Source of the DNA: a virus | Taxonomy: Duplodnaviria > Caudoviricetes | DNA length: 64,000 bases | Strand: one strand, 5' to 3' | IMG/VR virus record: IMGVR_UViG_3300026176_000228 | Coordinates: 40,756-104,755 of that record | Shown here: in pieces, positions 22,001 through 46,339 of the stretch | How the letters are laid out: every line of letters begins with the position of its first letter | Position numbering within the stretch: position 1 is the stretch's first letter | Notes under the pieces: generated by a model | Told to the model about the DNA's origin: nothing | The model's input: only the letters and a program-made list of their open reading frames with translations | Databases searched by the model: none | Program-made: the position numbers and the translations under genes

Positions 22001-23162
22001 AGGGGTTGCACGGAGCGTGGTCAACGTTGGATGCAAGGTAGGGGCCAGGCTGCATGGGTCATGGTCTTATGACGTTGCATGGTAAGGTATAGTTTACATG
22101 CGCTATTGGCAACGTCGCCCTACAAGGTGGGCTGTATCTTGCACATGTCAATGGCGCATGAATACACAAGTGGGGTGCACTTGAACATCTGTGCTATGAT
22201 TCTTAAAACGATTCAACCTTAACAAGAAAATTGAATGCGTTTCGCATAGACCAACATGCTATGTTACGCGTAACACGGCATTGTAAGCTCATATCTACCA
22301 CAAGTCTTGTGATTGCACCATATTGCACTAGATAAAACGTTTTCCTTCGTGATAGCAGTCATCCAGGATTGACACAAAGAACGTGCGTTCTACAATGTCA
22401 TATGTACTTGCATCCTGGTATAGTGCAAGTCATGACGCATTGGCAATACAAGTGGGATTTAGCCGGTTTTAGCCGCGCGTCTAGGCGTGCGTCATGTAGG
22501 ATTGCAAGATGAACCTGGACTTGCAGCAACATTACGATGAACCTTAAAGTTTTGCAATCTAAAATATGTCATGGTAACAAACACATCAAACACGTTTATA
22601 CTACGTGCGCACGGGCAACCCGCGCAGTTCCACCGCACCTTGACAACGTGAGACGCGACCTAAGCACAGCGCAACGCGCCAAGGCAGCGGGTTGCGTCTC
22701 ACTACATCCCCAAGTCATAAAGGACGTGCTACCACTACGCAAGGGTAATCAGAGGTTATGGCATACATTCTCCGTATGCTGGCGCAATCGCTAACGTCGA
22801 TTCGCAGACGTAGGACAGATTGACGCTAACCTACCTTATCCCCATGCAAGCATAGCACGGAAATAATGCCGTAAGGCACACTAGCACGGCTTTAGCACAG
22901 CATAGGCTAGTGGACGTTAAAGGGATAGACTTCCTTATACTAGCACAGACGTGCAAGATTGTAGTTATACGCTGTGCATAGCTTAGGTGTAAGGAAGAGG
23001 TTGCATCACTTCCCGCGCTAGTATGCGCAAGGTTGTACAAAGTCTATACAAACATTGTGCATATGTGGCTGGCCGTCATAGACCACGCGGGATATTTGGC
23101 ATATGCCAAAAGGTTCAATCGCAACCTACAATGCGATATATAGCACAAGAGGAGATTCTATC

Positions 23163-24338
23163 ATGGCACGCACTAGCAAATCAACACAATCGAACGTGAA
23201 GCAGATGTCTGAAGCAATCGCAGAATTCGAAAAGGAGAATCCCATGTCAACGCAGACGGAAAAGGCGCCGCGTAAGCCGCGCGCCAAGTCCACTACTCCG
23301 AAAGCGGGTGAAGTCACTACACAGAAAATCGCAAGGGTAGACGCGAACGCAGTCGCGAACGCTGATAATGCGCCTATCGCAATGACCGGCAGTAAGGTTG
23401 ATCTTTCCGGTATGGCAGACATTCCGGGCTATGTGTCAGTCGGCCCGGTCGTGAAAGGTGGAGGTGGGAAAAAGCACGCACAGTATTTGGCAGACGCGCA
23501 AAAGTTGGCGGATGAACACTTGCCAGCTATCCGCACCTTGCTTGCCTCCGGTCGGTCAAACGATATCGTCCTGTGGAATCATATCGCGACTTTGAAGCAA
23601 GGCAAGGCGAATAAAATCGCAGAGGATGAACACGGGAAGTATCCGCCATTTTCCGATTGGTTGCGCGTTGCTGTGGGTATGTCTATTGAAGATTATCGCG
23701 CGATTAGCCCGTGCCTTGACGTTGTGCAATACACAGAATTAGTGAAAGCCTACAAGGGGGAAGACGGTAACGCGATTAGCAGACGCGCCGCGGCTGATAT
23801 CGCGAAGATGTGGCCCGATGTGGAGCACCGCGCAGCGACCAAAAACGCGCCAGAACGTACCGCAGTTGACAATCTGCCAGCGCGCGAATTCGCTATTCGC
23901 GTTGCTCAAACGTTGGGTCGCTACGCGTGGGATGCGTTTTTGGTAGGCGCGAAGATCGATCCCAATAAGCAAGGTTCAAAGGGTATGGATTTTCCCGAAT
24001 TGGAATCCTGGTACATGAAAAAGCATGTTGCGCTGGAAGATTGCAAAACCAAGGAACATGCGGATATGCTCAAGGATGAATTCCGGACGGAAGCCTTGCG
24101 CGAACTCATGACAGAGGATGATCCCCACGGGCCGGAGTTAGAAAAGCTTGGCAAGTTGGCAACCAGTATCGCGGCATCGATTGCAGGATTCACAGCCAAG
24201 CTTACGGAAGTGCAGGAGCAAATCGCCTATCTGGAGCAGGATAGGCGCGACAGGTTGGCGGCCAAGCTTGCAGAGGAGATGAACGCTAAAGAATCTAAGG
24301 CGCGCAAACGCCAATCACGCGCGCCTAAGTCTGCATAA
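23163..24338 (+). CDS. Hypothetical protein, basic N-terminus and C-terminal coiled coil
   Basis: AGGAG RBS and ATG at 23163; 391 aa. Confidence 0.7.
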   Translation: MARTSKSTQSNVKQMSEAIAEFEKENPMSTQTEKAPRKPRAKSTTPKAGEVTTQKIARVDANAVANADNAPIAMTGSKVDLSGMADIPGYVSVGPVVKGGGGKKHAQYLADAQKLADEHLPAIRTLLASGRSNDIVLWNHIATLKQGKANKIAEDEHGKYPPFSDWLRVAVGMSIEDYRAISPCLDVVQYTELVKAYKGEDGNAISRRAAADIAKMWPDVEHRAATKNAPERTAVDNLPAREFAIRVAQTLGRYAWDAFLVGAKIDPNKQGSKGMDFPELESWYMKKHVALEDCKTKEHADMLKDEFRTEALRELMTEDDPHGPELEKLGKLATSIAASIAGFTAKLTEVQEQIAYLEQDRRDRLAAKLAEEMNAKESKARKRQSRAPKSA

Positions 24339-24673
24339 CGATAGCACGTTTGGAGTACCAAACCACCTAGCCTAAATCCTATTAGCTAACCATGACTAGA
24401 CTAGTAGAATTTAGGCTAGGACGTTTGATAGCAAACATGCTGCTAGAATGCCCATAGATACCGTTTTAAAGCCCATAGGCGCGTTCTGTATAGGGTATAG
24501 GTATAAAATGACCTATACCCCATTTTTAGCCGTTTCTGGCGCGTTTTTGCTATCAACGCGATAGGTCATAGCACACTTGTTCGGAAATCAGCCGTTTCGT
24601 GCGTGCTATACCGCATACAGCCGTGTATGATTATGTCAATACAGTCATACATCGGGCGTTTTGGCATACATCT

Positions 24674-24862
24674 GATTTTTGGCATATGCTAGAATCTAAT
24701 TTATCTGAGTGGTCGATAATACGCGTGTAGACTATAGTGATTATCGACGCGCTAGTCCAAAAATGGTTTGACCATTCATCCTATATGGCGCTAGTCTACA
24801 GCGTCCTTATAGGTTCAATGTCACTAGTCTGGTAAATTAGATTCTAGCATATGCCAAAAATC
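24674..24862 (+). ncRNA. Putative structured RNA closed by a perfect 30-bp stem
   Basis: 24674-24703 is the exact reverse complement of 24833-24862; internal hairpins have complementary loops. Confidence 0.55.
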
Positions 24863-25182
24863 GGGTCATATGCCACTAGACTTGCCAAGCATCATAGACT
24901 ATGCCATATGTTATAGCATTTGACACAAGTCATGATGCTTGGCATTTTATATGGCCGGTGCATTTTTTTGACTTGCTTTATATAGTTATGTCAACGTAAC
25001 TGTAACCGTAACTGTACTCGAAATTGTTTTTACATTTTTGGCATATGCTAAATTTGAAAAAACAATTTACAACCGTAACTGTCAACTGTAAGAAAAACAA
25101 TTCATAAATTACTGTGCTAACTGTGGCGCAGTAAAAAACAATTCACATTTGGCATATGCCAAAAACGAAGGAGCGTGCAAAG

Positions 25183-25461
25183 ATGCTTAAGCTTGCGTAT
25201 GAGAACTATTGCCATCATATGTGGCAACTGTCTTATATCGGTGAACATTGGAAGGATTTTGTCGTCGCGTGCTACGACGTGCATTACGCCATGAACGGTA
25301 TTGAGCAAATGTTCTGGCAAGGTTCGGAATCCAATCTGAACCTGCGCGATACGCGACCTGTGTCTTGGGAAATGTTTGAATTCTGGACTGATGATCAAGC
25401 CGTGATTCTGGACTTTGCTATACGCGTAGCTGCGGTGCTTGAGACGGAACTGATATTGTAG
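25183..25461 (+). CDS. Array cassette: hypothetical protein
   Basis: Palindrome-RBS-ORF-palindrome layout. Confidence 0.6.
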   Translation: MLKLAYENYCHHMWQLSYIGEHWKDFVVACYDVHYAMNGIEQMFWQGSESNLNLRDTRPVSWEMFEFWTDDQAVILDFAIRVAAVLETELIL

Positions 25462-25500
25462 AATTTGGCATATGCCAAAAAAAACAAAGGAGTTTACCGT

Positions 25501-25707
25501 ATGCTCACCACTAAAACCGCCAAGCAAATGCTTCTGGATCGCGGCCAAGCCTTGCCGCGTGTAGGTTATGAAAGCATTGTAACTGAATTCAAACAGCCGT
25601 GCGGTTGCTTTGATCGCGTATGGCTAGTCAACCGTGCTGGCAAATACTCCACGCGTGTTGACTTTCATGCTTGTGATGCTTGTTGGTTCAAGTTGCCAAT
25701 TCGGTAA
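25501..25707 (+). CDS. Array cassette: small Cys-rich protein
   Basis: AAGGAG RBS; PCGC...ACDAC. Confidence 0.6.
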   Translation: MLTTKTAKQMLLDRGQALPRVGYESIVTEFKQPCGCFDRVWLVNRAGKYSTRVDFHACDACWFKLPIR

Positions 25708-25754
25708 ATTTGGCATATGCCAAATAAAACAATTTCACAACAAAGGAGTTTACC

Positions 25755-25853
25755 ATGTTCAAGCGTTTTCTGTTCATTCTGAAGTACGATGTGTTGTCCA
25801 AGGAATCCTTCCGCGCGACCATGTTCTACTTGGCCCATGGTTATTGGCGGTAA
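25755..25853 (+). CDS. Array cassette: 32-aa peptide
   Basis: Same CAAAGGAGTTTACC RBS as the previous gene; MFKRFLFILKYDVLSKESFRATMFYLAHGYWR. Confidence 0.45.
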   Translation: MFKRFLFILKYDVLSKESFRATMFYLAHGYWR

Positions 25854-25857
25854 TGTG

Positions 25858-26073
25858 ATGCTCAAGCTTCTGGTCATTGCGAAAATGCTGTGCTTCACGC
25901 TCGGCCTGACGCCCGCGGAATGGGCGTGCTATGAATCGGTTGCGGAATATCAACCACGCGAACAGTATACCCGCGCGTGTGTCTATGCTGAAGATATGGA
26001 TGAAACCACGCCGAATCTGGTTATTTACGAAACCTGGAACGGTGAAATCGGTATGATGTTCTTTGCCGGTTAG
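25858..26073 (+). CDS. Array cassette: hypothetical protein
   Basis: ORF ends shortly before palindrome 26095. Confidence 0.5.
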   Translation: MLKLLVIAKMLCFTLGLTPAEWACYESVAEYQPREQYTRACVYAEDMDETTPNLVIYETWNGEIGMMFFAG

Positions 26074-26179
26074 TGTATAACTGCCAATGGTAAATTTGGC
26101 ATATGCTAAATTCTGCCTAATCCAAAAAACAGAATTTGGCATATGCCAAAAAAACAATTCACAGAAAGGCTAAAATTCC

Positions 26180-26494
26180 ATGAAGACTATCGTGTACTTG
26201 AATCCCGACTATCAGGACGCGGAGATTCGCTATACGCATGATGTACCACTGGAAAGCGCGAAGGCTACTGAAGTGTTGGAAGTCTCTGACCTGCCGAAAC
26301 GGATTAGCGTTAAGGCTTTTCATCCCGATGATTTCATGGATTCGCATACCGCAGTTGACTTGCCCCGCGACGCGTTCGTGAATCTCTTGCGTTACTTGCA
26401 CGCTAACGACCGGCGTATCGAAGCCATTATGCTTGTCCGTAGTGTGACGCATTGGGGCCTATCGGACGCGAAGCATTTCGTGGAATCTCTCTAA
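26180..26494 (+). CDS. Array cassette: protein with ribosomal L7/L12 C-terminal-like motif
   Basis: IEAIMLVRSVTHWGLSDAKHFVESL. Confidence 0.55.
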   Translation: MKTIVYLNPDYQDAEIRYTHDVPLESAKATEVLEVSDLPKRISVKAFHPDDFMDSHTAVDLPRDAFVNLLRYLHANDRRIEAIMLVRSVTHWGLSDAKHFVESL

Positions 26495-26571
26495 CCCACC
26501 GGCATATGCCAGGTCAATAAAATGATTTTGGCATATGCCAAATTACTATTTCCAGAAAAGGAGTATTTTCA

Positions 26572-26826
26572 ATGCCTAGGCTCAATGTCAACCTCTCTGT
26601 TTCCGGTCGCGCTACCCCTAATTCATGGGATGCACCTCACGCGTATGGTGATACGGTTGCGTTTGATGTGGAAGCTGAAATTGATTTTCTGCGCCTGTCC
26701 AAACCGCAGATTGTCAAGATGCTGGAAAAGCATGTCGAGCAAGCTATCGTGAATTGGGAACGCGCGCAAGCTGAGGAACTGCGCAAACTGGCTGAAGCTG
26801 TGGCTGAAACTGATTCTGAATCATAA
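26572..26826 (+). CDS. Array cassette: hypothetical protein
   Basis: AAAGGGAG RBS. Confidence 0.6.
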   Translation: MPRLNVNLSVSGRATPNSWDAPHAYGDTVAFDVEAEIDFLRLSKPQIVKMLEKHVEQAIVNWERAQAEELRKLAEAVAETDSES

Positions 26827-26907
26827 ACTCAAGTTGAACTGGTTTGCCTGTTTCCTGCCATAAAACAGGTATTGTAAATTTGGCATATGCTAAAAAAGGA
26901 GTCTGTC

Positions 26908-27039
26908 ATGTACAAGCTTCTTACTCTGCTCGGCTTTCGTGTATGGGCATACACGAATGCCTGCATTATGTTGCAAAACGGACGCTTGCGGGTGAATGTC
27001 TATCCCAATCGTGTTTCTATCTATCGGTCTACGCTATGA
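26908..27039 (+). CDS. Array cassette: 43-aa protein
   Basis: AAGGAG RBS; ATGA overlap with the next gene. Confidence 0.5.
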   Translation: MYKLLTLLGFRVWAYTNACIMLQNGRLRVNVYPNRVSIYRSTL

Positions 27040-27338
27040 CCATACAAGTCGCGGTCAAACCTAAAGATGGCGATTTTGTGTATGGGCCATTTGAAGTGGC
27101 GACATTCCAGCGCGTGGGTGAGATTCTAGTTAAGATCGCGATTCAAAACCATGATCCTGAAATCTCTCGCCACGACCTATGGCTAATAGAAAATGGTAAA
27201 CTGACTGAACGGGCCTTCTATTTCCTACCCGATTATGTCAGTATCAGGAAAAAGAAAACGCGTACGCGTAAAGCCTATACACAGATATGGGCTTTCGATG
27301 CAAAACTGACAAGGTATATCCGACAGAAGTCGGAGTAA
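27036..27338 (+). CDS. Array cassette: hypothetical protein
   Basis: Translationally coupled start MTIQVAV. Confidence 0.55.
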   Translation: MTIQVAVKPKDGDFVYGPFEVATFQRVGEILVKIAIQNHDPEISRHDLWLIENGKLTERAFYFLPDYVSIRKKKTRTRKAYTQIWAFDAKLTRYIRQKSE

Positions 27339-27344
27339 CAAACC

Positions 27345-27411
27345 AGGCGCGTCGTCTAAGTAAGACAGAATCGCAAGATTCAAATTCAGGTATCAAATCC
27401 TGGCGCGCCTA
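27345..27411 (+). tRNA. tRNA-like element with a GCAA tetraloop in place of the anticodon loop
   Basis: Acceptor AGGCGCG/CGCGCCT, D stem GTCT/AGAC, GAATC-GCAA-GATTC, T arm TCAGG-TATCAAAT-CCTGG. Confidence 0.5.
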
Positions 27412-27413
27412 TT

Positions 27414-27488
27414 CCCGCTGGCTGGAAGCCCGTGTCATCGGCTGTACTAGATACTGATAATTGCCAGTTCGATTCTGGCGCGGCGGGC
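27414..27488 (+). tRNA. Second tRNA-like element (aberrant D and anticodon arms)
   Basis: Acceptor CCCGCTG/CGGCGGG, canonical T arm GCCAG-TTCGATT-CTGGC, ATCGG/CTGAT stem with 12-nt loop beginning CTGTA. Confidence 0.45.
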
Positions 27489-27540
27489 ATTTGGTAAATT
27501 TGGCATATGCCAAAATCTAACCCTCAAAGGAGTCTATTCC

Positions 27541-27783
27541 ATGAAACCGTGTATCATGTACATCATCTTTCCTGAAAACCCCCGGCAAACACCTTATTTA
27601 CGTGAGTTCAAAATCGCGGGCAATCCCAATACCCATACGCGTAACTATGAGCGCGCGCGTACTAAAAAGGCTGCGTTTCATAAGGCGCGTATCATGGCGC
27701 GCCAGATTCGTGGTGTAGTCGAAATCCAACGGTCTGTACCCGGCAAGAAATTGGCTAAGACTTGGCTGGTTTGGCAAATCTGA
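27541..27783 (+). CDS. Array cassette: basic hypothetical protein
   Basis: Flanked by palindromes, AAGGAG RBS. Confidence 0.6.
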   Translation: MKPCIMYIIFPENPRQTPYLREFKIAGNPNTHTRNYERARTKKAAFHKARIMARQIRGVVEIQRSVPGKKLAKTWLVWQI

Positions 27784-27828
27784 AAATTTGGCATATGCCA
27801 AAATCTGAAAACTGAAAGGAATCTAGTC

Positions 27829-28212
27829 ATGGCTACTTTGAATCTCGCTCGGCTTTTCGCGGACGCGCACGCGGCAGGCATGACCGCGGCTATGGAGCAC
27901 GCGCCAACGCCTATGTTGGTCGTAGAACACACGAATCCCCTGAACGATAACAGTCCTATCAAACGCGTCTATGCGCCGGTGATGGATGGCGTCTGCGGCT
28001 TCGCGTGGATTGTGATTAAGCCTGCCAACTGTGCCGCGGCTAAATACGCGAAGGAACACTTTGGCGCGCGTAAAGGTTACGAACCGGGTATCCATATTTG
28101 GGTACATCAATTCAATCAAAGTTATGAACGCAAAATGAAATACGCTGCCGCGTTTACAGAAGTGTTGCGCGGCGCGGGTATCAACGCTTATGCTGATGGG
28201 CGTTTGGATTGA
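27829..28212 (+). CDS. Array cassette: conserved-type phage protein
   Basis: GVCGFAW...QSYERKMKYA.AF..VL...GI.AY...RLD motif. Confidence 0.65.
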   Translation: MATLNLARLFADAHAAGMTAAMEHAPTPMLVVEHTNPLNDNSPIKRVYAPVMDGVCGFAWIVIKPANCAAAKYAKEHFGARKGYEPGIHIWVHQFNQSYERKMKYAAAFTEVLRGAGINAYADGRLD

Positions 28213-28248
28213 TGTTTTAGCATATGCCAAATCTAAAAGGAGTTCAAG

Positions 28249-28746
28249 ATGCCTACTGAAGTGCCTAAATCACCGTGGTTCGACCAAGAGTCACCTGCTA
28301 TCGCGATTCTGGAATTGATTGCTGAATGTGATGACTCAGAGCCTTACGAACTGAATGCGGGGGCGGTATTTCGCGCGGTCAATGGCAAATTCTTGGTCGT
28401 ATTTGTTTCGGGTTGTTCCTGTTGGCCCGACCGTGGCAGCACAACCCAAACTGTCTGCCATACACCAGTAGAAGTAGACCGCGCGTTAACTGGTTGGCAC
28501 ACGCTCAGGGACTATTGGCAAAACTGGCTCAGAAAGGATAACTTGAAAGTGAAGACTATCTATGAAACCGCCGATGGGCAACAGTTTACCGATTATTCTG
28601 CCGCCGAAGAACATGAGCGCACGTTGCGATTGGTGGACTGGCTTGACAGTCAATTGGGTAAAACTGGCATGTATAGCACCCGTGAATTCGCAGCCTTGTT
28701 CACGAATGAAACCGCGCGTGCGGAGTTTATGCGCTTGTTGAGCTAA
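28249..28746 (+). CDS. Array cassette: hypothetical protein (SGCSCW motif)
   Basis: Flanked by palindromes. Confidence 0.6.
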   Translation: MPTEVPKSPWFDQESPAIAILELIAECDDSEPYELNAGAVFRAVNGKFLVVFVSGCSCWPDRGSTTQTVCHTPVEVDRALTGWHTLRDYWQNWLRKDNLKVKTIYETADGQQFTDYSAAEEHERTLRLVDWLDSQLGKTGMYSTREFAALFTNETARAEFMRLLS

Positions 28747-28753: not shown

Positions 28754-28915
28754 TTTAGCATATGCCAAATCTACAGTTCCGCGCGGCTCTCCACCGCGGC
28801 GCTAAATACTCAGTCCCTACTCAAGAATCGTCAATCGAAGAAAGCACACTGAGTCAAATCAGTCTCGTACTGCGCGCGTAAGAGTACCGGGATTGTAAAT
28901 TTGGCATATGCTAAA
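28754..28915 (+). ncRNA. Putative multi-stem RNA cassette closed by a 27-bp stem
   Basis: 28754-28780 pairs with 28889-28915 (1 mismatch, 2 G-U); internal stems CGCGG/CCGCG, ACTCAGT/ACTGAGT, GTACT/AGTAC; no ORF. Confidence 0.5.
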
Positions 28916-28928: not shown

Positions 28929-29363
28929 ATGATTACGTCATTCCAGGGTGAACATAGATTTCTGTCAAATTTCAGTCCTTGCAATGTTGAATTTGAAGGT
29001 ATGGTTTTCCCGACCGTCGAACACGCGTATCAGGCGGCTAAAACGCTTGACCTAAGCTTGCGGCAACAGATTGCTGCTTTGCCTACTCCTGGTAAAGCCA
29101 AGCGTTTTGGGCGTCAACTGGAATTGCGTCCTGATTGGGACAGATTACGCGTGTCTATCATGTTGCAATTGCTCATAAGTAAATTCACGCACGAACCGTG
29201 GCGTGGTTTACTTATCGCCACGCGTGACGAAGAATTAATCGAAGGTAATACTTGGGGCGATAGATTCTGGGGCGCGGAATTAGTCAACGGTGTTTGGGTT
29301 GGTGAAAATAAGCTTGGTCGCTCATTGATGTTGGTGCGTGAAACGTTGCTTGAGGCTAAATAG
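28929..29363 (+). CDS. NADAR (YbiA-like) family protein
   Basis: FLSNF, FPTVEHAYQAAK, AKRFGR, KF, WGDRFWG, GENKLGRSLM. Confidence 0.9.
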   Translation: MITSFQGEHRFLSNFSPCNVEFEGMVFPTVEHAYQAAKTLDLSLRQQIAALPTPGKAKRFGRQLELRPDWDRLRVSIMLQLLISKFTHEPWRGLLIATRDEELIEGNTWGDRFWGAELVNGVWVGENKLGRSLMLVRETLLEAK

Positions 29364-29390
29364 ATTTGGCATATGCTAAATTCCAACCGT

Positions 29391-29428
29391 GAGACGGGCG
29401 ACTACTCAATAGTCGCCCGTCTCTTTTT
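29391..29428 (+). terminator. Intrinsic terminator
   Basis: 14-bp stem GAGACGGGCGACTA/TAGTCGCCCGTCTC then TTTTT. Confidence 0.8.
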
Positions 29429-29467
29429 GCGTTCAAAAATAAATCAATTTTAGAAAGGAATCAAACC

Positions 29468-29722
29468 GTGAAAACCATTGTGATAATCAATACTGATTAC
29501 GCGCGACAAGATGTAGAAGTGGAATTTCGTGAAGATGTCGCCAAAGGTGATGTGCGCTTTGAAACTCGTCCCGATATGTCTGATTTGCCTTGGGACGTAC
29601 GCGATGGCTTAAGGCAATTGGATAGAATTGGTGAATTCTAGCTGGCAGTTCCTATTGTACAACGTCTCTTGAACTGTACAGAGGATGAAGCTATGAGTGT
29701 GATGCATCAACTGTGTGACTGA
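29468..29722 (+). pseudogene. Paralogue of 26180..26494 with in-frame TAG at 29639
   Basis: MKTIVIINTDY...DLPWDVRDGLRQLDRIGEF*LAVPIVQRLL...; frame continues to a TGA next to palindrome 29724. Confidence 0.6.
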
Positions 29723-29765
29723 TTTTGGCATATGCCAAATCCTAAATCCTGAAAGGAGTAAACCA

Positions 29766-30198: not shown

Positions 30199-30246
30199 TT
30201 TGGCATATGCCAAATCAGAAAGGAATAACTTTTCTGATAGAAAGGT

Positions 30247-30732
30247 GTGATTAGCATGTTAGTAGATTATGAATTTGTCTTTCCCCTAGAACCGCAGCAC
30301 GTCGAAGCTGAACGTCCTACTGACCGACTCTGGGATGGCATTGATTTTGAAATGAGTTGTCCTGCACGCCTAGAGCAAGGTGTCTATTTCGTGCCGGAAG
30401 GTATTGATAACTGGTTACGTAATGAATTTGATGAAGATTGGCAACATTATCCCGCAGATTTGCCCACGCCTTTGTACTGCTATGGTGTATGCGACAGCGC
30501 GACACAATTTCGCGTATGCTGGTTGCCACTTCTACTCCAATCTAATCGCAAGTTTCTAGTTGTCTTGGGCCATTTACACAAGATTGACGAACCCGTACAG
30601 GGTGGCTGGCGTTGGCATAAGTGGGGGCCATACATTGGCACTAAGCAACCGCGTCATGAATATCTTTATGACGAAGGGCCGGAAATCACGCGTGTTTGCC
30701 TGTTTCAGATTTATGAGTATTTGAACGTGTAG
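30247..30732 (+). CDS. Array cassette: conserved-type phage protein
   Basis: YGVCDS...GGWRWHKWGPYIG...EYLYDE motif. Confidence 0.65.
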   Translation: MISMLVDYEFVFPLEPQHVEAERPTDRLWDGIDFEMSCPARLEQGVYFVPEGIDNWLRNEFDEDWQHYPADLPTPLYCYGVCDSATQFRVCWLPLLLQSNRKFLVVLGHLHKIDEPVQGGWRWHKWGPYIGTKQPRHEYLYDEGPEITRVCLFQIYEYLNV

Positions 30733-30764
30733 TTTTTAGCATATGCCAAAAAGGAGAATGAAAA

Positions 30765-31555: not shown

Positions 31556-31987
31556 ATGCGTTTCTATGTCATCTATTCATTCGACATACCGTATGAAGAT
31601 TCAGTCAAGCCCTGGACACCGCGTCGCGTGTTCAAGCTGCAAACTACAGAACGGCACGATGGCGCAGATGGTGACTATGACTATTTGGGCGATAACTGGA
31701 CTAAGAGCAAACATCGCAAGTATGTCGGCTTTCTGAGCAAAGCACAACTGCGGCAACTGTGTTGGGATATGGGTTTTCGGCCCGAAGAAACTGAAACCAT
31801 GGGTAGTCTGACTGAATACGGTTGGTTGCCCGCGATTAGCTTCAATGCGGAGACTGAATACTATGATGTTATCGGAAATATGTACGTGACGCCTATTCCT
31901 CAAAAACCTAACGGGGATGACTTTGAGGAAATGGATGAGCGCGATTGGGAACGCGTACGCGCCGCGGTTATTAGTTATTTTAGCTAA
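31556..31987 (+). CDS. Array cassette: hypothetical protein
   Basis: AAGGAG RBS; flanked by palindromes. Confidence 0.6.
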   Translation: MRFYVIYSFDIPYEDSVKPWTPRRVFKLQTTERHDGADGDYDYLGDNWTKSKHRKYVGFLSKAQLRQLCWDMGFRPEETETMGSLTEYGWLPAISFNAETEYYDVIGNMYVTPIPQKPNGDDFEEMDERDWERVRAAVISYFS

Positions 31988-32016
31988 TTTGGCATATGCC
32001 AAAAAGGAGCCAGGCA

Positions 32017-32776: not shown

Positions 32777-32816
32777 TTTGGCATATGCCAAAAACTTACA
32801 CAAAGGAGAATTCTCA

Positions 32817-33050
32817 ATGCTTATCAAACTGCTCAATAAAAAGCTGGTCGAGTACGCGGGTTTCGATACCGCGCGTGTCAGTGTCCTAAACGATGGTTTT
32901 GTGACCGTCGAAGTGCCTTACACGGAACTAGCGCAAGCCTTTAGCGCAGATGCCGCCGCGACTTACTGTAAGAATCCTGATGGTTGGGTAACGCTGCGCT
33001 TCTTTGATACCTATACTGAGTTTGAAGATTGGCTTTGCGGAGACGAATAA
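32817..33050 (+). CDS. Array cassette: hypothetical protein
   Basis: AAGGAG RBS; C-terminus resembles that of 36203..36430 (F..Y..FEDWL). Confidence 0.55.
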   Translation: MLIKLLNKKLVEYAGFDTARVSVLNDGFVTVEVPYTELAQAFSADAAATYCKNPDGWVTLRFFDTYTEFEDWLCGDE

Positions 33051-33093
33051 AACAATTTAGAATATACCAAATCTAAAAAGAAAGGGTTTAATC

Positions 33094-33345
33094 ATGGAAA
33101 TTACATCTGAAGTTGTCTCACCGTGGAAGAAGGTCTACGAATTGGAAACGCGCCTCACTAAAGCACGGCGCGCGTTGGCCGAGAAGCGTAATGCTATCGC
33201 GTTCAAGGAACAGGAAATCGTGCGGCTCAAGAGTGAAATTGATAGCGCGAAGATTGACGAAACAACCATCAATCTTGAGCTTTACGCATTGACCAAAGAT
33301 TATGAAACTGCTTTGTTTGCCGCGACTTACGCTGAGAAGTATTAA
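33094..33345 (+). CDS. Array cassette: coiled-coil protein
   Basis: Heptad-like composition. Confidence 0.55.
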   Translation: MEITSEVVSPWKKVYELETRLTKARRALAEKRNAIAFKEQEIVRLKSEIDSAKIDETTINLELYALTKDYETALFAATYAEKY

Positions 33346-33384
33346 TACATTTTGGCATATGCCAAAAAGGAAAGGAATCTAAAT

Positions 33385-33606
33385 ATGTTATATCGTTCAG
33401 CTTGGATTTGGCATTGCACTGATGGCGGCTACATGGTGGATTTTGATCGTTGGTACCTTTACCCCAAACCGCCTGTTGGTCAACGCTATAAGAAAATGTC
33501 ACTGGCTTCCATTAACCGCTTGCTGAGTTGCAAATATAAATCCATGTATGCTCTAGCTATGCAGGATGACATTGTTATTGTTATTACATTTCCAGCAAGG
33601 GCATAA
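33385..33606 (+). CDS. Array cassette: hypothetical protein
   Basis: Flanked by palindromes. Confidence 0.5.
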   Translation: MLYRSAWIWHCTDGGYMVDFDRWYLYPKPPVGQRYKKMSLASINRLLSCKYKSMYALAMQDDIVIVITFPARA

Positions 33607-33661
33607 TTAATTTTTGGCATATGCCAAATCCTCTTTGTAAAAACAGAAAGGAATATAATCC

Positions 33662-35846: not shown

Positions 35847-35892
35847 GATTTGGCATATGCCAAAATCAGAAAAGAAGAAAGGACTAAAACTA

Positions 35893-36135
35893 ATGGCTAA
35901 CCATACTTGCAACTACTTTGACAGACAATATAAATTCGCCGTTGATGACCCCCTGCGCGAACTTGTGCCGGATATGAAAGATTGTCCATTCTGTGGTGAA
36001 CACAATAAGTATGCTTTAGTGGTCTACATCAGTGACCACTATGCGCTTTATTGTGCTAAGTGCGACTGCGAGGGGCCATACTCTAATAGTGTTGAGGAAG
36101 CTTTTGAGTTGTGGAATCACAGGAGTTCACTATGA
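35893..36135 (+). CDS. Lar-family restriction-alleviation-like protein
   Basis: KDCPFCG...CAKCDCEGP...EEAFELWN.R. Confidence 0.65.
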   Translation: MANHTCNYFDRQYKFAVDDPLRELVPDMKDCPFCGEHNKYALVVYISDHYALYCAKCDCEGPYSNSVEEAFELWNHRSSL

Positions 36136-36202
36136 ATAACCGTATCTTCCACTCCGCTGAATTCCAAGCCAGTACACGCGTTTATCCAGAAAGGCTAATA
36201 CA

Positions 36203-36466: not shown

Positions 36467-37465
36467 ATGAGTCAACACAGTGTCAATGTTGTACGTTTGG
36501 GTAATATTGCACCACATCCCAATGCTGATACTCTGGACACAACCACGGTCAATGGTTTCACCTGCGTGATTCGGCGCGGTGATTTTCAACCAGGCGACCT
36601 TGCACTTTACATCGAACCGGATTACGTTGTACCGCTGGATAATCCACTGTTTACCTTCCTACGACCTGAAAATCATCCTGAACGCATCGTGCAACGCATT
36701 GGTGTCAAGCGTCTGCGCGGTATCTATTCCATGGGCCTGCTGCTACCTGCACCCGCGGGCGCGCAAGAGGGTGATGATTTGATGGAAGCTCTGGGTATCA
36801 CGCGCTATGAGCCACCTGAACAAACTGATGCCAACACTGGCGGGGCAACCGAAGCCCCGCCTTATCGTCAGGTGATTCCAACTTATGACTTGGAAAACTT
36901 GCGCAAATGGCAGGCTAAAGTTGAAGGCCATCAAGTTATTATCACCGAAAAAGTCCACGGCACAAACGCCCGCTATGTCTGGTCAAGCGCATATGAGCGC
37001 ATGTTCTGTGGCTCACGGCGTGAATGGAAGAAGGAAGACGCGACTAATCTATGGTGGCGCGCGCTGGCGCAGAATCCGTGGATCGCAGAATGGTGCCAAA
37101 AGCATCCTGATGTAATTCTGTGGGGTGAAGTTTATGGTTGGGTACAAGATTTGCGTTATGGGGCCAAGCCGGGTGAATTTTTCTTCCGCGTGTTTGATAT
37201 CTATACCGTAGATAGTGCGACTTTCTGGTTGCCCGGCATGGCGCAGAGTATCTTTGGCGCACGCGCCATGCCAATTGTGTATCAGGGTATCTACCCTGGT
37301 TTCGCGGCAGTTGAACAAATGGCGGATGCTGATAGCGCATTGGCAAAGCATATCCGCGAAGGCGTAGTTATCGAAGTAACTGATATGCCAAATGAATGGG
37401 ATACTGATTTGCAAGCTTGGCGCATTAAGTTGAAGTTGCCCGGTAATAAATATCTCAGTCGTTGA
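36467..37465 (+). CDS. ATP-dependent RNA ligase, DRB0094/Rnl5-like
   Basis: N-terminal OB module HPNAD...LRGIYSMG; motif I TEKVHGTN; GEVYG, FDI, REGVV, KLK. Confidence 0.85.
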   Translation: MSQHSVNVVRLGNIAPHPNADTLDTTTVNGFTCVIRRGDFQPGDLALYIEPDYVVPLDNPLFTFLRPENHPERIVQRIGVKRLRGIYSMGLLLPAPAGAQEGDDLMEALGITRYEPPEQTDANTGGATEAPPYRQVIPTYDLENLRKWQAKVEGHQVIITEKVHGTNARYVWSSAYERMFCGSRREWKKEDATNLWWRALAQNPWIAEWCQKHPDVILWGEVYGWVQDLRYGAKPGEFFFRVFDIYTVDSATFWLPGMAQSIFGARAMPIVYQGIYPGFAAVEQMADADSALAKHIREGVVIEVTDMPNEWDTDLQAWRIKLKLPGNKYLSR

Positions 37466-37490: not shown

Positions 37491-37528
37491 ACTACCCTGG
37501 TCTAAAAAGCTAGGGTAGTTTTGTTTTT
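37491..37528 (+). terminator. Intrinsic terminator
   Basis: ACTACCCTGG/CTAGGGTAGT then T-rich tail. Confidence 0.65.
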
Positions 37529-39487: not shown

Positions 39488-39954
39488 TGAAAAGCTACGC
39501 CAAGACTTTCTATGATGTGGAAATCGAAACCTACAGTGAATGGGGTGACACAGCCGAATACCCTAGTATTGATGTGCGCTGCCCTAATCTACGCGATTAT
39601 TACAATGAAATTGATATCGCGTTGTTCTTAGAGACGCGCGTATCAGAGATTGATGCCGTTGCTGATGCAGTTTTCGACTATGAAGTAGCTCGTTTTTGGG
39701 AACACGCTCAAGTCATAGCTTGGGACATCTTTGGCCCTAATGTAGAAGTGCTTGCGCGCGGTCGCTCAGGCAGACATCTTTGTATCAGTGGTCTGCCTGA
39801 AATCTTTTTGTGGAAGAAACGGCAAACCGCGAAATGGCAGAAGTTTGTCAAGATAATTGAAAATATCATTAATAGTTATACTGAATTAGAGGAAGCCGCA
39901 CAGTTGGTCGCGGCTTATCTGGAGACTAAAGCACTGGAGAAAGTGAAGGTCTAA
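39487..39954 (+). CDS. Hypothetical protein (GRSGR motif)
   Basis: TGATG coupling with the upstream gene. Confidence 0.55.
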   Translation: MKSYAKTFYDVEIETYSEWGDTAEYPSIDVRCPNLRDYYNEIDIALFLETRVSEIDAVADAVFDYEVARFWEHAQVIAWDIFGPNVEVLARGRSGRHLCISGLPEIFLWKKRQTAKWQKFVKIIENIINSYTELEEAAQLVAAYLETKALEKVKV

Positions 39955-39955
39955 C

Positions 39956-40624: not shown

Positions 40625-40794
40625 ATTTGGCATATGCCAAATTAGCAAAAGGAGTTCTATGGCTGATATCTACTACTTCCTAATCGGTATTGCGCGCCAG
40701 GGCGCGCAAGTCCTGGTTTTAGATGACCAAGAATTAGCTTTTGATTTACTCGCCGCGGGTCGCGTTGGGCGACTCGCTTTCATCTGGAGTTATC

Positions 40795-41214: not shown

Positions 41215-41216
41215 TT

Positions 41217-41260: not shown

Positions 41261-41306
41261 TGGCATATGCCAAATTTTGAAATTGTTTTTAGAAAGGAAG
41301 TGACAC

Positions 41307-42968
41307 ATGGCAAACAAAGTCATCTGTCCTGAATGCGGTCGCGACATGCGACTTATCGGTGGCAAGAATGGCGATTTCTACGGCTGCACGGGTTATCCCG
41401 ATAAGTGTCGCAAGACGCTCTCGCGCGATATGGCTCGCGCGTATACACAGATTGACCCACAAGAACTCGAAAGCATGAAAACCAGTTTTCGACCTTCGCA
41501 TTATCAACAAGCTCTCTTTGATGCGATTGAAGGCATTGATCAACGTCCTAAGCGTCATATTGTGATTGACGCTAAAGCAGGCAGTGGCAAAACGACTTCC
41601 ATCGTGCAGGGTGTCTTGCGTATTCCCAATCGCGCACAGCAAAAAGTTGCCTTTGTCGCGTTCAATAATAACGTCGTAGATACCTTGCGCGACCGCTTGC
41701 CACCAGATTGCGATATTTCCACAACCCACAGTGCCGCCTTCAAGGATGTACAGCGCCATCTTGGTTTTGTGCCTAAAATTGACAGATATAAAGTCAATGC
41801 TATTGCAGAGCGTTTTCTGCCTAAGCACCTAACCAATGTGGCTGCGGAGCTAGTGGATAAAGTTAAGAATACTCTCGCGCCAACCGACGAATTAACCCTG
41901 GAAGCTGTCTGCGACAAATACGACTTGGACATTACTAAAGAGATGTCTGAGGATGCCAGTGAAGCCGAAATTGCTGAAGCCAAGGCGCGTGTTTACGCGG
42001 CTGTACCGCGAATTTTAGAAATCAACGCCGCAGAAACTTCTACGGTGGATTTCACGGATATGCTTTGGTTGCCAGTTTACAATAACTGGCCGATTCGTAA
42101 ATTAGACTGGCTCTTGGCTGACGAAGTGCAAGATTGGAATCGTGGTCAAATCGAGTGGGGCTTGCGCGCGGGTAGTAGTGGTCATCTGGTAGCCGTGGGC
42201 GATCCAGACCAGTCCATCTACGGCTGGCGTGGCGCAGACACCAGCGCGATGGATAATCTAACGCGCAGTCTGGATGCTGATGTTTTACCATTGTCAATTT
42301 GTTATCGTTGCCCGACGTCACATATCGAACTGGCACAGCAAATTGTACCTGAAATCGAAGCTGCGCCTAACGCTAAGCCAGGTGTTCTAGGCTGGATGGG
42401 AATGCATGAATTGACTTACCATCCCCAACATCCCGTACCGGGTGACTTGATTCTCTGTCGTGTCAATGCGCCATTGATCAAGTATGCATACGCGTTTCTA
42501 CGTGAGAATCTACCAGTTACAATTCGAGGCCGCGATATCGGAGAGGGTCTACTGGCTCTTATCAAAAAACTCAAGGCTGATTCGCTAGACGAACTAGCAT
42601 TCAAGGCGCGCGCGTATTACGAAAAAGAATATGCTAAATTAATGAAAAATGATAAAGAAGGTCGCGCTAATGCCTTGACTGACCGCATTGATACTCTACT
42701 GGCTTTGATTGAAGGCGTTGATAGTCTGCATCAACTGATTTATCGGATTGATACTCTGTTTCCGCGACAAAAGGATTCTCAGAGTATCGTCTTATCTACG
42801 GTACATCGCGCGAAAGGTGACGAAGCACGTCGCGTGTTTATCCTGCGTCCTGATTTGATTCCCCATCCGCGCGCGCATACCGAAGATCAGATTCGCGGCG
42901 AAAAATGTGTCAAATATGTCGCACTCACCAGGGCTAAAGAAGAACTCTGGTTTGTAGAAAGGTCGTAA
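41307..42968 (+). CDS. UvrD/REP-like SF1 helicase with N-terminal topoisomerase-type Zn ribbon
   Basis: CPECG..FYGCTGYP; AGSGKT, DEVQD, VGDPDQSIYGWRGA, STVHRAKG, YVALTRA. Confidence 0.9.
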   Translation: MANKVICPECGRDMRLIGGKNGDFYGCTGYPDKCRKTLSRDMARAYTQIDPQELESMKTSFRPSHYQQALFDAIEGIDQRPKRHIVIDAKAGSGKTTSIVQGVLRIPNRAQQKVAFVAFNNNVVDTLRDRLPPDCDISTTHSAAFKDVQRHLGFVPKIDRYKVNAIAERFLPKHLTNVAAELVDKVKNTLAPTDELTLEAVCDKYDLDITKEMSEDASEAEIAEAKARVYAAVPRILEINAAETSTVDFTDMLWLPVYNNWPIRKLDWLLADEVQDWNRGQIEWGLRAGSSGHLVAVGDPDQSIYGWRGADTSAMDNLTRSLDADVLPLSICYRCPTSHIELAQQIVPEIEAAPNAKPGVLGWMGMHELTYHPQHPVPGDLILCRVNAPLIKYAYAFLRENLPVTIRGRDIGEGLLALIKKLKADSLDELAFKARAYYEKEYAKLMKNDKEGRANALTDRIDTLLALIEGVDSLHQLIYRIDTLFPRQKDSQSIVLSTVHRAKGDEARRVFILRPDLIPHPRAHTEDQIRGEKCVKYVALTRAKEELWFVERS

Positions 42969-42988
42969 AAACGTAAGGAAGGTGATTT

Positions 42989-43195
42989 ATGACTATTATC
43001 TTTAACGAAGATCATGTCAAGCACGCACTCGAACTACTGACCCACATGGGTGGTGGTATCACATTCTGTGATTTTCCTACCAAGCACAGGGATTATCAGG
43101 TCAGTTTTGAGGATACTGATACAGATCAAGAACTGGTTATCTGTGCTAAGTGCTTGGAATGGCAATTGAAACAAGTGGTAATTGGAGAAAGTTGA
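42989..43195 (+). CDS. Small hypothetical protein
   Basis: GGAAGG RBS. Confidence 0.5.
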   Translation: MTIIFNEDHVKHALELLTHMGGGITFCDFPTKHRDYQVSFEDTDTDQELVICAKCLEWQLKQVVIGES

Positions 43196-43235
43196 TCGAA
43201 GCTATTTAGTATATGCCAAATTAGAAAGGACAACT

Positions 43236-43616
43236 ATGCGCCCAATAACCCATCTCTTACCTCTGATTGGCGTTATCGCGCGCGACCGCGACCACCGTCC
43301 GACCAAGCTGCATGTACCAGGCTCAGATGGCAAACACTATGATGTCCTGGTACGTCGTTCGCGTAAATTATACGAAGTTGAATGTCTCTTATCCGTCACT
43401 GGTACTTCACAGGAATCCTGTCCTGGCAATCTACACGGCATCTGTTATCACACACGCGCCGCGGTTGCTAAATGCGCGCTGGAACAGGGCTACAAGCATG
43501 TGTCCTTTTGTAGAACAGAACAGGACGCGCAGCGGATTCAGAACCTCACCCATGGCCGCGTAACGCGGGTTGCCTCGCGCCAATCAGGTGTGGTAATGTG
43601 GTTAGTGTACAGATGA
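43236..43616 (+). CDS. SWIM-like zinc-finger protein
   Basis: C...CPG...CYH. Confidence 0.5.
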   Translation: MRPITHLLPLIGVIARDRDHRPTKLHVPGSDGKHYDVLVRRSRKLYEVECLLSVTGTSQESCPGNLHGICYHTRAAVAKCALEQGYKHVSFCRTEQDAQRIQNLTHGRVTRVASRQSGVVMWLVYR

Positions 43617-43644
43617 TAATTGTTTTTTTAGAAAGGATTAACCA

Positions 43645-44466
43645 ATGGGTACTGTAATTTTGGACGACTTACCAGATACTTATGATTTCGATGTAGTCGA
43701 GCCGGTGGTACAACCGCCGACCATTTCCGACCTGCTCCTGCAAGAAGCCGCTCAAGCTGAGGATTGGCTGTTCCGCGGTGAGATTCTAACTCTTTACAAG
43801 TGGTATGACATTTTCAATACTGTGATGTTCACGGACGCACCGCTACCTCTACCCGTGATTGGTTTTGCGGGGATGAATAAGAAAACCCTCGCACGTTATA
43901 ACATCGCGCGTAATGAGATTGGGTTGCGGAATTACATTTCGTTCAATGAAAAACACTTTAATACCGCGGTGGGCGCGTGGGCTTACGGTCTGTGGAGCCA
44001 ACTCGAATCTCTGCTCCACGAAATGGTCCACGCGTGGCAGCAGACCTATGGCATAGATAAACTGGATGTGGCTAAGATTACGGCCCGTTATACTCACAAT
44101 CCAGAGTTCATCGCCAAGTGTGAATTCTTCGGCTTGCATCCGCGCCCGCGCGTCGGCTCGCATATGCGTGTTGCGGATGGTTGGTTTGCGGACCTGATGG
44201 CTGAGTATGGCATCCCTGCGCCAGAGGGTGTCCCGACTGAAGTTGTGGGTAAGCAGAACTGGTGGCAGATGGAAAAGTCCTGGAAAACTTCTAATCGCGC
44301 GCACAAGTGGCAGTGTCCTTGCGGGCAAATCGTACGCGTAACTAAGGCTGATTTTCCAGGCTGTATTTGTATATCTTGTGGCGAGGCTTTTGTAGATATG
44401 ACCGCGCTGGAGAGCGCAGAAAGCAGTTATGATGAACCAACCGAAGACACTCCTGACGGGAGTTAA
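43645..44466 (+). CDS. SprT-like zinc metalloprotease
   Basis: LLHEMVHAWQ, H.N.EF, C-terminal CPC..CISC. Confidence 0.75.
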   Translation: MGTVILDDLPDTYDFDVVEPVVQPPTISDLLLQEAAQAEDWLFRGEILTLYKWYDIFNTVMFTDAPLPLPVIGFAGMNKKTLARYNIARNEIGLRNYISFNEKHFNTAVGAWAYGLWSQLESLLHEMVHAWQQTYGIDKLDVAKITARYTHNPEFIAKCEFFGLHPRPRVGSHMRVADGWFADLMAEYGIPAPEGVPTEVVGKQNWWQMEKSWKTSNRAHKWQCPCGQIVRVTKADFPGCICISCGEAFVDMTALESAESSYDEPTEDTPDGS

Positions 44467-44701
44467 GTTTGAGACGCGTACTGAAGAACGCGTTGAGCGT
44501 GTCGTGGGTTTACGTTATCCTTATGGTGACGCGATTATGCGCGCGCGGATGACTGTCTATTTGCCACTCCTTCGTGGTAGAGTAGAAATTTGGGAGAATC
44601 ACGAATGGCGTTTGATTTCAGATAATTTCAATGGCAGTGGAAACAATGTCGAAGAAGTTTTCAACCAAATGCTCAAGGTCGCGACGGGCTTTTGTGGCTA
44701 G
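44429..44701 (+). CDS. Hypothetical protein
   Basis: Operon packing. Confidence 0.45.
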   Translation: MMNQPKTLLTGVKFETRTEERVERVVGLRYPYGDAIMRARMTVYLPLLRGRVEIWENHEWRLISDNFNGSGNNVEEVFNQMLKVATGFCG

Positions 44702-44760
44702 ATAAACTTTCTCTATTATAAGATTTGACTCTATATAGAAAAAGTTTACAGGGAGAGATT

Positions 44761-44985
44761 ATGACATATGGTTTAGTCTTTACTTTTCATACTGAATATC
44801 TCGCGATTACCTATCGCACCGCGACGGAAGCTGAGACTATTCGCGTGTCCTATGATGGCACAGGGATTGATGCCTCGACTGGCGCGAGTCTTTTCTGGAG
44901 CCTGAGCTTGTTATCACCGACGCTAACTGATGTAGTGCGCGATTATGATAACTGGCAAGTCAGGCTTTTTCCCTTGGAGCTATGA
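44761..44985 (+). CDS. Hypothetical protein
   Basis: GGGAG RBS. Confidence 0.45.
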   Translation: MTYGLVFTFHTEYLAITYRTATEAETIRVSYDGTGIDASTGASLFWSLSLLSPTLTDVVRDYDNWQVRLFPLEL

Positions 44986-45118
44986 TGTTAGTGGATTTTG
45001 TGATTAGTTGTATTGTGATATTGGTTATCATAGGGGCCGTACTGGGTTTGTTGAACGCTGTTCTGTCGATTCTGCTGGATATCTTAGATATCTTCAATCC
45101 TAAACTGTGAGGTTGCAC

Positions 45119-45364
45119 ATGGATGCTGCAAAACGCCGTGAAATCTCATCTCTAGGTGGTCAAGCCGTAGTCGAAAAATACGGTAAAGCTTATATGGCCG
45201 AACTAGGCCGCAGAGGTTTAGAAGGCTTAGCTGAGAAGTATTTTCAGGGCAATCGAGAAGCCGCGCTGGAATGGTTAGGTCAATGTGGCGCATACGCGTA
45301 TGACACACAATTTCGGGAACGCGGCTGGGGCGTGATGCCCCAACCGCCTAAATTGAAAGGTTAG
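45119..45364 (+). CDS. KGG-repeat (general-stress-like) protein
   Basis: KRREISSLGG...YMAELGRRG. Confidence 0.55.
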   Translation: MDAAKRREISSLGGQAVVEKYGKAYMAELGRRGLEGLAEKYFQGNREAALEWLGQCGAYAYDTQFRERGWGVMPQPPKLKG

Positions 45365-45368
45365 GAAA

Positions 45369-45614
45369 ATGTTTCATAACGAATCAGCCAAACGAGCCAA
45401 TAGTATCGGTGAGCAGTTGAAGAATATTATTGACGGGATTAATGCAGGTAATAAGTTAGACGAATCTCTGGTTGCACTAACACTAATGATTACGCGCTTG
45501 GCGTTGAGTATAATGGCAGAAGAACTGGAATCCGCGACTCACTGCCCTGCTTGTCATGCAGAACTCCATCGCGCGTGTTCTAACTGTGATACTTGGGACT
45601 TCAATCGTGAGTGA
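45369..45614 (+). CDS. Zinc-ribbon protein
   Basis: CPAC...CSNC. Confidence 0.5.
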   Translation: MFHNESAKRANSIGEQLKNIIDGINAGNKLDESLVALTLMITRLALSIMAEELESATHCPACHAELHRACSNCDTWDFNRE

Positions 45615-45915
45615 TAGACTGGCGGATACTATTGCCCGCTTGAAGGCTGAGGGTCTACCCCGCGCGGTGGACTTCAAGCCCTCTTCGCCACAGCTGACTG
45701 AATTTCGCGAAGTCTTACATGGACAGATTACCAATCTGCCCTTTGGCAGTCTGGTAACGCGACAAACGTTGCGCGCGCTATCTATGGTCAGTGCAGGTGT
45801 CTTGCGCGAACTGCTACAGTGGGCAGTTAGTGAGGACTGGAGCGCCAAGCCACAACACAAGACGATTGTCAGGGAGAAGCTGTGGCGCGCGTATATGAAA
45901 GGACTGTATCGCTGA
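45607..45915 (+). CDS. Hypothetical protein
   Basis: Coupled GTG start. Confidence 0.45.
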   Translation: MSDRLADTIARLKAEGLPRAVDFKPSSPQLTEFREVLHGQITNLPFGSLVTRQTLRALSMVSAGVLRELLQWAVSEDWSAKPQHKTIVREKLWRAYMKGLYR

Positions 45916-46115
45916 TGAATCCTAATGCCTATATCTGGCGCGACGCTCACGACCGCAGTATATTGCATATTGCCGATAGTAATATATCGGTCTGGTTCAG
46001 TTTACCCGAAGAAGGTATCTGGTCACTCTTTGGTCAAGAGCTTTATAAACGCGCGCGCGAGGCTGTCACGACTGAACCCATGCCAGTTTATCTACAGTTG
46101 GTCTTGACGCAATAA
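45915..46115 (+). CDS. Hypothetical protein
   Basis: TGATG coupling; ends before palindrome 46121. Confidence 0.45.
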   Translation: MNPNAYIWRDAHDRSILHIADSNISVWFSLPEEGIWSLFGQELYKRAREAVTTEPMPVYLQLVLTQ

Positions 46116-46159
46116 TTGTTTTTGGCATATGCCAAATCAAGAAAGGTAAATCAAATAAC

Positions 46160-46339
46160 ATGATTACACATTGTGATTGTCACAACGCTTTTCAGGACGC
46201 GCGTTACGGTACAGGTATGCGCGTGCATAATTGGGCACCCAAAGCTCTAGGTGGCGCGGGTGGCTACCGCTGTACGGTCTGCCAGAAAATCAAAGCTGGC
46301 CCTAAGCCAGCTACTGAAGTTACCAAAGCGAAGAAATAG
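46160..46339 (+). CDS. Last array cassette: 59-aa Zn-binding protein
   Basis: My translation MITHCDCHNAFQDARYGTGMRVHN...YRCTVC; GAAAGG RBS. Confidence 0.6.
   Translation: MITHCDCHNAFQDARYGTGMRVHNWAPKALGGAGGYRCTVCQKIKAGPKPATEVTKAKK

Follow-up and report, generated by a model that had tools for sequence, protein, structure and literature searches.

A 16-bp palindrome repeated across an early-type gene array of a Caudoviricetes phage, and a candidate protein that may read it

The stretch examined here, hereafter the window, comprises 64,000 nucleotides of a Caudoviricetes virus (positions 40,756 to 104,755 of IMG/VR record IMGVR_UViG_3300026176_000228) and contains an early-type gene array (23095-46339) in which 38 copies of the 16-bp palindrome TTTRGCATATGCYAAA are interspersed among ~50 small, mostly unknown open reading frames (ORFs) and several non-coding units. 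All array genes lie on the plus strand, as the initial annotation of this DNA had described, and the array features given below are on that strand. The array sits between the terminase gene and a 2-kb non-coding region; the portal (51030-52820), intein-bearing terminase (46341-49205) and capsid genes (below 17000) occupy the minus strand, and replication genes come next, on the plus strand. We compared the whole 104,755-bp record that contains the window (G000; CheckV completeness 69 %) with a distant syntenic phage (G001; 117 kb, portal 55 %, CheckV completeness 84 %), with a close relative that is 70-95 % identical at the nucleotide level across shared blocks (L061) and with metagenomes, these last as assembled contigs only (no raw reads) from four studies.

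The palindrome array is real and strongly selected. Allowing ≤3 mismatches, the window contains 42 matches, compared with a mean of 0.37 and a maximum of 3 in 100 shuffles. Of these, 38 fall within 23095-46136, close to the ~39 of the initial annotation, and four lie at 17664, 49663, 52392 and 60357; with eight copies outside the window, the 105-kb genome holds ~50 in total. The usual anatomy, a stop codon followed by the motif and then a ribosome-binding site (RBS), is as previously noted: 24/38 array copies are positioned -5 to 12 nt from a stop codon, 29/38 are ≤50 nt from a start codon, and 31 of the 48 gene junctions in the array (65 %) possess a copy. The distance from copy to RBS varies (0-19 nt), the flanks display no conserved signal except A/T adjoining the site, and an ATG within the motif shows no preference for the frame of the next gene (~1/4 of 31). 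Frequent variation is confined to positions 4 (G/A) and 13 (C/T), with A at position 4 (A4) in seven copies and T at position 13 (T13) in nine, corresponding to the TTTAGC.. and ..GCTAAA variants that had been reported. The site is a perfect 16-bp palindrome with an invariant centre and hence lacks an asymmetric core or attC-type imperfect hairpin. Some of the 12 copies beyond the array precede an RBS on the minus strand (17664-17679; genome position 28309), indicating that the link to start sites reaches beyond the array. A variant copy (49663-49678) lies in a terminase small subunit-like gene, the copy at 52392 is within the portal gene and that at 60357 is at a gene junction.

L061 possesses this motif and a matching array. 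Fifteen orthologous copies compared between G000 and L061 exhibit no changes at 14 positions and six at the symmetric positions 4/13, in flanks that are 14 % divergent. Homogenisation of the copies would also have evened out positions 4 and 13; as judged from these substitutions, therefore, selection is sequence-specific and acts on each copy. Folded as RNA, the motif yields a hairpin of -6.1 kcal/mol, which drops to -0.3 in the A4 variant and to -3.8 in the T13 (G.U) variant. A4 and T13 are nonetheless about equally common (7 vs 9 in G000; 8 vs 4 in L061), and they mirror each other on double-stranded DNA, not on RNA. In none of three genomes does the complementarity of adjacent copies exceed that obtained when their order is shuffled (p 0.61, 0.56, 0.55). 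Because the variant that abolishes the hairpin occurs as often as the G.U variant and adjacent copies show no overall co-variation, the sequence evidence identifies the palindrome as a double-stranded DNA site rather than an RNA hairpin.

Three copies occupy operator positions. In a sigma70-type promoter with TACAAT 17-18 nt on, the right half of the first copy (23095-23132) takes the -35 position; three relatives share this arrangement, their copies differing by a 1-bp insertion or a single change, and it thus recurs in four genomes. The copy at 17664 lies between an extended -10-like box (TGG-TATACT) and the RBS of its minus-strand unit, and is kept in L061 (two genomes), while the copy at genome position 40431 occupies the -35 position relative to a perfect TATAAT.

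In the distant phage G001, a corresponding array follows the same divergent gene and has a single gene in common with that of G000; it has its own palindrome, TTTGGATWATCCAAA, in 20 copies, 15 of which lie within 50 nt of a start. Its TTGG/CCAA arms are related to those of the G000 site and its spacer is one base shorter. The G000 palindrome, in turn, is missing from 400/401 genomes of the likeliest host class, a class that is itself a guess, the sole hint being a 41 % portal relative in an Anaerolineae metagenome-assembled genome. On both grounds, the reader of the site is probably phage-encoded and has probably altered together with the site between lineages. No CRISPR spacers matching the phage were found among the 401 genomes of the candidate host class, and scans for the motif plus RBS over viral and metagenome contigs returned just single, chance-level matches. 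A Cys-rich gene without an assigned family (17837-18769), divergent from the array, keeps its position in G001, where a second paralogue is present.

The candidate reader is the first array gene (23163-24338, 391 aa), whose product is predicted to comprise a disordered basic N-terminus, a helical domain and a C-terminal coiled coil. Four relatives are 42-78 % identical, and the promoter is overlain by a copy of this site in all of the loci examined (3/3). We suspected a KorB-like domain from sequence before folding. A fold search using the helical domain alone (predicted local distance difference test score, pLDDT, of the model 72) against 48,161 chains returned ParB on parS (Z 6.0, root-mean-square deviation [rmsd] 4.5, 122 residues aligned, rank 2), Spo0J (Z 5.9, rmsd 3.8, 111 residues aligned, rank 3) and KorB on its operator (Z 5.0, rmsd 3.7, 112 of 114 residues, rank 9), and the best TM-score in a viral structure library was that of a Spo0J-like protein (0.39, E 0.97). 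These scores are below kinship level; it is their convergence on ParB, Spo0J and KorB that weakly suggests a fold of this type. Whole-protein fold searches returned coiled coils only, and a hidden Markov model search over 1.84 billion representatives recovered only the three known clusters. Matches of the first genes of both G000 and G001 to DUF3102 clusters in the Atlas (0.91) were retained as leads only. Modelled as a homodimer, the product scored 0.52 (best control, 0.01), with runs agreeing in 97 % of contacts and pLDDT of 83+; the mark applied was reached by 20/30 solved homodimers and 1/23 monomers, and the modelling thus supports a homodimeric product. We tentatively nominate this ParB/KorB-like product as the binder, at something short of an even chance.

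Whole gene units have been gained and lost exactly at the copies. Four copy-to-copy differences distinguish G000 from L061: a structured unit (24678-24858), a NADAR gene cassette (28929-29363) missing in L061 exactly between copies 28900 and 29365, a cassette at 30215-30734 and a pair of cassettes at 32793-33350, these likewise missing exactly from copy to copy. For the last three differences, the left flank fits the left copy and the right flank fits the right copy. Replacements relative to L061 at 25165-25707, 27548-28744 and 31559-31988 have a copy as their right end and a copy or its RBS/ATG as their left, and contigs of the four studies revealed further differences (27491-27785, 33344-33612, 26152-26556, 29449-29724 and 35865-36181). 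Breakpoints lie ≤5 nt from a copy in 10/22 (chance 6.4 %, P 4e-7) and 10/36 (chance 4.7 %, P 4e-6) cases, in two sets that overlap in ancestry. Joints without a copy were also detected at 26163-26821, 39870-39955, 43628-43699 and 17234-17650, the last flanked by a 21-bp RBS/start repeat, and an insert at 8612-9060 of L061 has a copy on one side only. These exchanges most probably reflect short-homology recombination rather than the work of an integron; an identical 16-mer with a similar RBS leader at most junctions would account for their location. An AAA_24 ATPase (59259-60353, plus strand), which has an orthologue in G001 and which we take to be, probably, a Sak4-type annealing recombinase, is a candidate for performing them. 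Long-range contig joints with sides of 21-23 nt were discarded as the motif mapping onto another copy. In L061, an IS200/IS605-type element (L061:10508-11790) sits directly behind the RBS of a cassette.

Our preferred interpretation, to which we assign a probability of roughly 0.55, is that the copies are operator and roadblock sites for a phage-encoded dimer, which would regulate its own gene and subsequently dampen the early array, and that these 16-mers also serve as passive crossover points. Host RNA polymerase would transcribe the array early in infection; the regulator, most likely a homodimer of the first-gene product, would accumulate and bind the copy over its own promoter, and would also bind the ~37 copies between stop codons and RBSs, turning the array down as operator plus roadblock in a stoperator-like manner. 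A phage annealing protein, perhaps the AAA_24 ATPase, would delete, insert or replace whole gene units at the copies by short-homology recombination, as with the elements of T4-type phages discussed below. We infer binding, repression rather than activation, the timing and the identity of the recombination enzyme. Of the three models put forward in the initial annotation (RNA processing, integron-like shuffling and operator or stoperator sites for a dimeric protein), the third fits best.

Several observations weigh against the operator reading. Most copies have no promoter boxes nearby, and with no integrase found, the purpose of ~40 repressor sites in a phage is not obvious. Pfam, PHROGs and PDB sequence searches with the first-gene product returned no match, the fold match is weak (Z under 8, with a designed protein tying for rank 1 and a model predicted TM-score of 0.56), and the modelled dimer interface is largely generic coiled coil. 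The first gene of G001 encodes a helical protein with an AT-hook-like tail that is not alignable to its G000 counterpart (hhalign 0.3 %), and alternative DNA binders are encoded: an XRE helix-turn-helix (HTH) protein (55760-56023), a weak ribbon-helix-helix (RHH) candidate (genome 861-1058) and the MerR-type HTH of the portal. The use of motif matches to select the 15 orthologous pairs inflates their conservation figure; the first copy, which was excluded from that comparison, does vary. Finally, as 65 % of junctions carry a copy, the enrichment of breakpoints partly reflects indels that simply respect gene ends.

Some of these proteins merit separate description. The small RHH-like ORF (L001:810-1058) lies behind a near-consensus sigma70 promoter, has a variant palindrome inside its 3′ end and has no counterpart that we could find in G001. 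The MerR-type HTH is N-terminal in the portal (51030-52820) of G000 and G001 alike, and G001 additionally encodes a stand-alone 66-aa MerR-type HTH protein.

A bolder version of the operator reading, in which a CTPase-less protein derived from ParB/KorB both regulates the array and bridges pairs of palindromes for recombinase-free exchange of gene and structured-RNA cassettes, protein and site changing together between phage lineages, appears improbable to us. It is also unlikely that the same ParB-like dimer has a non-transcriptional function, the copies being parS-like sites for coating, condensing, tethering or pulling in the first-entering or origin-proximal DNA. Such a function would suit the hint of a ParB-family fold, the scarcity of promoter boxes and the location of the array beside the 2-kb non-coding region with its short direct repeats. 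However, no ParB N-terminal CTPase domain (ParB_N) was found in either G000 or G001 and no ParA among the proteins scanned, and partition does not require the tight coupling to the RBS that is seen here, also on minus-strand units. The non-coding region (21200-23100) is AT-rich and repeat-bearing, with short direct repeats near 21850-21990, and is a candidate origin or genome end.

The proposal of a dedicated integron-like cassette system, in which a recombinase would cut within the palindrome to excise or insert units, correctly anticipated gain and loss at the motif, as evidenced by the comparison with L061 (four copy-to-copy differences) and with contigs of the four studies (several more); the rest of that model fared poorly and we consider it a doubtful explanation. 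In one run, a contig joint going back from 28208 to 27494 was obtained, which may reflect reordering, a circle or mere mis-mapping of the motif (side length not given). Otherwise, shared blocks are colinear in L061 and in long contigs, and no inverted unit was seen, whereas a symmetric, invariant centre predicts inversions. The absence of an integrase from the window extends to the whole record: neither a tyrosine nor a serine recombinase was found at E≤1 in G000 (69 % complete) or G001 (84 % complete), and the record ends of each fall in stretches that are continuous in the other genome; a host-borne or unrecognisable enzyme would have escaped these searches. Motif-free joints such as 17234-17650 and the different spacer length of the G001 site also argue against a dedicated recombinase. 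A 356-aa gene beside the portal, whose N-terminus had an integrase-like look, was identified as a phosphoesterase.

RNA processing, in which RNase III or a phage nuclease would cleave hairpins or copy-to-copy duplexes and so free small RNAs and one mRNA per gene, accords with the stop-motif-RBS anatomy and with the presence of an RNA ligase gene within the array (36467-37465), but is disfavoured as a general role and has, in our estimation, little likelihood. The A4 variant is common though it abolishes the hairpin, neighbouring copies do not co-vary, G001 copies mostly yield an A.A central mismatch, and RNase III searches were empty in both phages; the initial annotation had recommended looking for a recombinase or RNase in the rest of the genome. 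The non-coding structured units and a near-empty unit (26095-26150) that had been described are real, and an RNA-level role is plausible for two of them. In the unit at 24678-24858, two variant copies complementary to each other form part of a 30-bp closing stem, and L061 lacks the unit and retains one copy; at 28754-28915, the flanking A4 and T13 copies and their inner flanks form a 27-28-bp stem that is kept in L061. Stems of this kind (27-30 bp), with pair-preserving changes in L061, speak for processing. Two tandem tRNA-like folds (27345-27490) comprise an acceptor-like stem and a T-arm, with short or odd anticodon arms; relative to L061, six pairs are changed on both sides, four on one side and none is broken, a comparison of two sequences only. 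These folds were called by neither ARAGORN nor Rfam, the ARAGORN search being empty and Rfam giving no match at gathering threshold or credible E-value; they are possibly tRNA decoys or processing signals.

A positive element, i.e. a phage-specific promoter or activator site giving each gene a separate start, would explain the one copy per gene and the right half placed 17 nt before the -10 box at two good promoters, but it has few odds in its favour given that no phage sigma factor (sigma70 region 2 search empty in G000 and G001) or RNA polymerase was seen, copy-to-RBS distance and flanks are unconserved, -10 boxes at that spacing are no commoner overall than chance, and at 29365 and 37468 an intrinsic-terminator-like hairpin (29391-29430, kept in L061, and a comparable one at 37491-37525) stands between copy and RBS, so that the copy is not a stand-alone promoter there.

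Most array genes belong to no family. Those identified encode, besides the NADAR protein and RNA ligase, a Lar-like restriction alleviation protein (35893-36135), a UvrD-like helicase with an N-terminal zinc ribbon (41307-42968), a peptidase and a SprT-like protein. Elsewhere, the major capsid gene (8585-10401) is interrupted by an opposite-strand HNH gene (9418-10047) and is uninterrupted in G001, suggesting a probable intron with a homing endonuclease. TnpB-like genes are found at 12326-13468 of the window and twice more in G001. The phosphoesterase (50018-51088), located between portal and terminase, has an AP2/HNH-like N-terminus and is 50 % identical in G001. Sugar-nucleotide pathway genes (cytidylyltransferase, aminotransferase and synthase-like) follow the tail genes at L002:2595-11968 and are common to G001; several DNA methyltransferases are encoded away from these genes. 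Metagenomes of wastewater and anaerobic digesters contain relatives of G000.

For a decade, no reader has been known for the palindromes that occur in many copies among the early genes of phages, such as those of the Cluster O and Cluster K mycobacteriophages. The present case brings together the site, an adjacent candidate reader, a relative with another site and natural indel alleles, rendering cognate and non-cognate binding directly testable. If our preferred reading of the copies as operators is correct, a ParB-type domain has been reused as a phage-wide switch for early genes, and the units behind the copies offer a route to host-takeover genes and small RNAs in unstudied digester and wastewater phages.

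The suggestion that this is an undescribed system was overstated. The array does not qualify as an integron, nor do its copies qualify as stoperators proper or promoter-early stem-loop elements (PeSLs) proper; rather, it belongs to a known but unexplained kind, as a variant of it. In Cluster O mycobacteriophages, a 17-bp palindrome, TGTTCGG-N3-CCGAACA, occurs ~34 times, concentrated among small non-structural genes; the repeats are proposed to be sites for a dimeric protein, display deletions by recombination between copies and are not found in the host (PMC4351075). Both arrays thus have 30+ conserved palindromes of unrelated sequence among small genes, deletions between copies and no copies in the host (for our phage, a guessed host class). 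In Cluster O, however, only 14/34 copies are intergenic and the repeats are not tied to start sites, whereas here 29/38 copies immediately precede an RBS, the centre does not vary and a candidate for the reader can be named. The start-associated sequences (SAS) and extended SAS (ESAS) of Cluster K are also repeats tied to the translation starts of non-structural genes, with a consensus that differs between subclusters, but the SAS is asymmetric and includes the RBS, and the ESAS has 17-bp arms and a variable spacer (PMC3203893).

PeSLs of T4-type phages resemble the palindrome in being repeated intergenic elements of a hyperplastic region, between which ORFans are gained, lost and replaced (PMC2839356, PMC4122927), but are ~100-bp combinations of a sigma70 promoter and a terminator, whereas here the element is a bare 16-bp palindrome, promoter boxes are missing from most copies, and promoter-like sites number 35 against 32 expected. 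Cluster A stoperators (L5, TipsytheTRex; PMC9283540) number >20 sites in promoters and short intergenic spaces, as do the copies in our phage; unlike the symmetric site described here, in a phage where no integrase was found, each stoperator is an asymmetric 13-mer, oriented with transcription, that is read by a monomer and serves to maintain lysogeny. SPBRE, read by MrpR in SPbeta, is likewise a repressor site with multiple copies across a phage genome, although these number about ten and lie in promoters (PMC10516654). KorB of plasmid RK2, to which the structural hint is weak, has a ParB-family DNA-binding domain and acts as a global repressor at dispersed palindromes (PMC13768133, PMC11790492). 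Its operator OB, TTTAGC(G/C)GCTAAA (PMC13768133), has a half-site, TTTAGC, that matches the TTTRGC of our palindrome; OB has a 1-bp centre and 12 sites, in contrast to the 4-bp centre here, and KorB has a clamp domain with CTPase activity and ParA as its partner, whereas no such domain was found in G000 or G001 and no ParA among the proteins scanned. Set beside these systems, the array owes its value to its RNA cassettes and to the fact that a candidate reader can be named and a relative has an alternative site.

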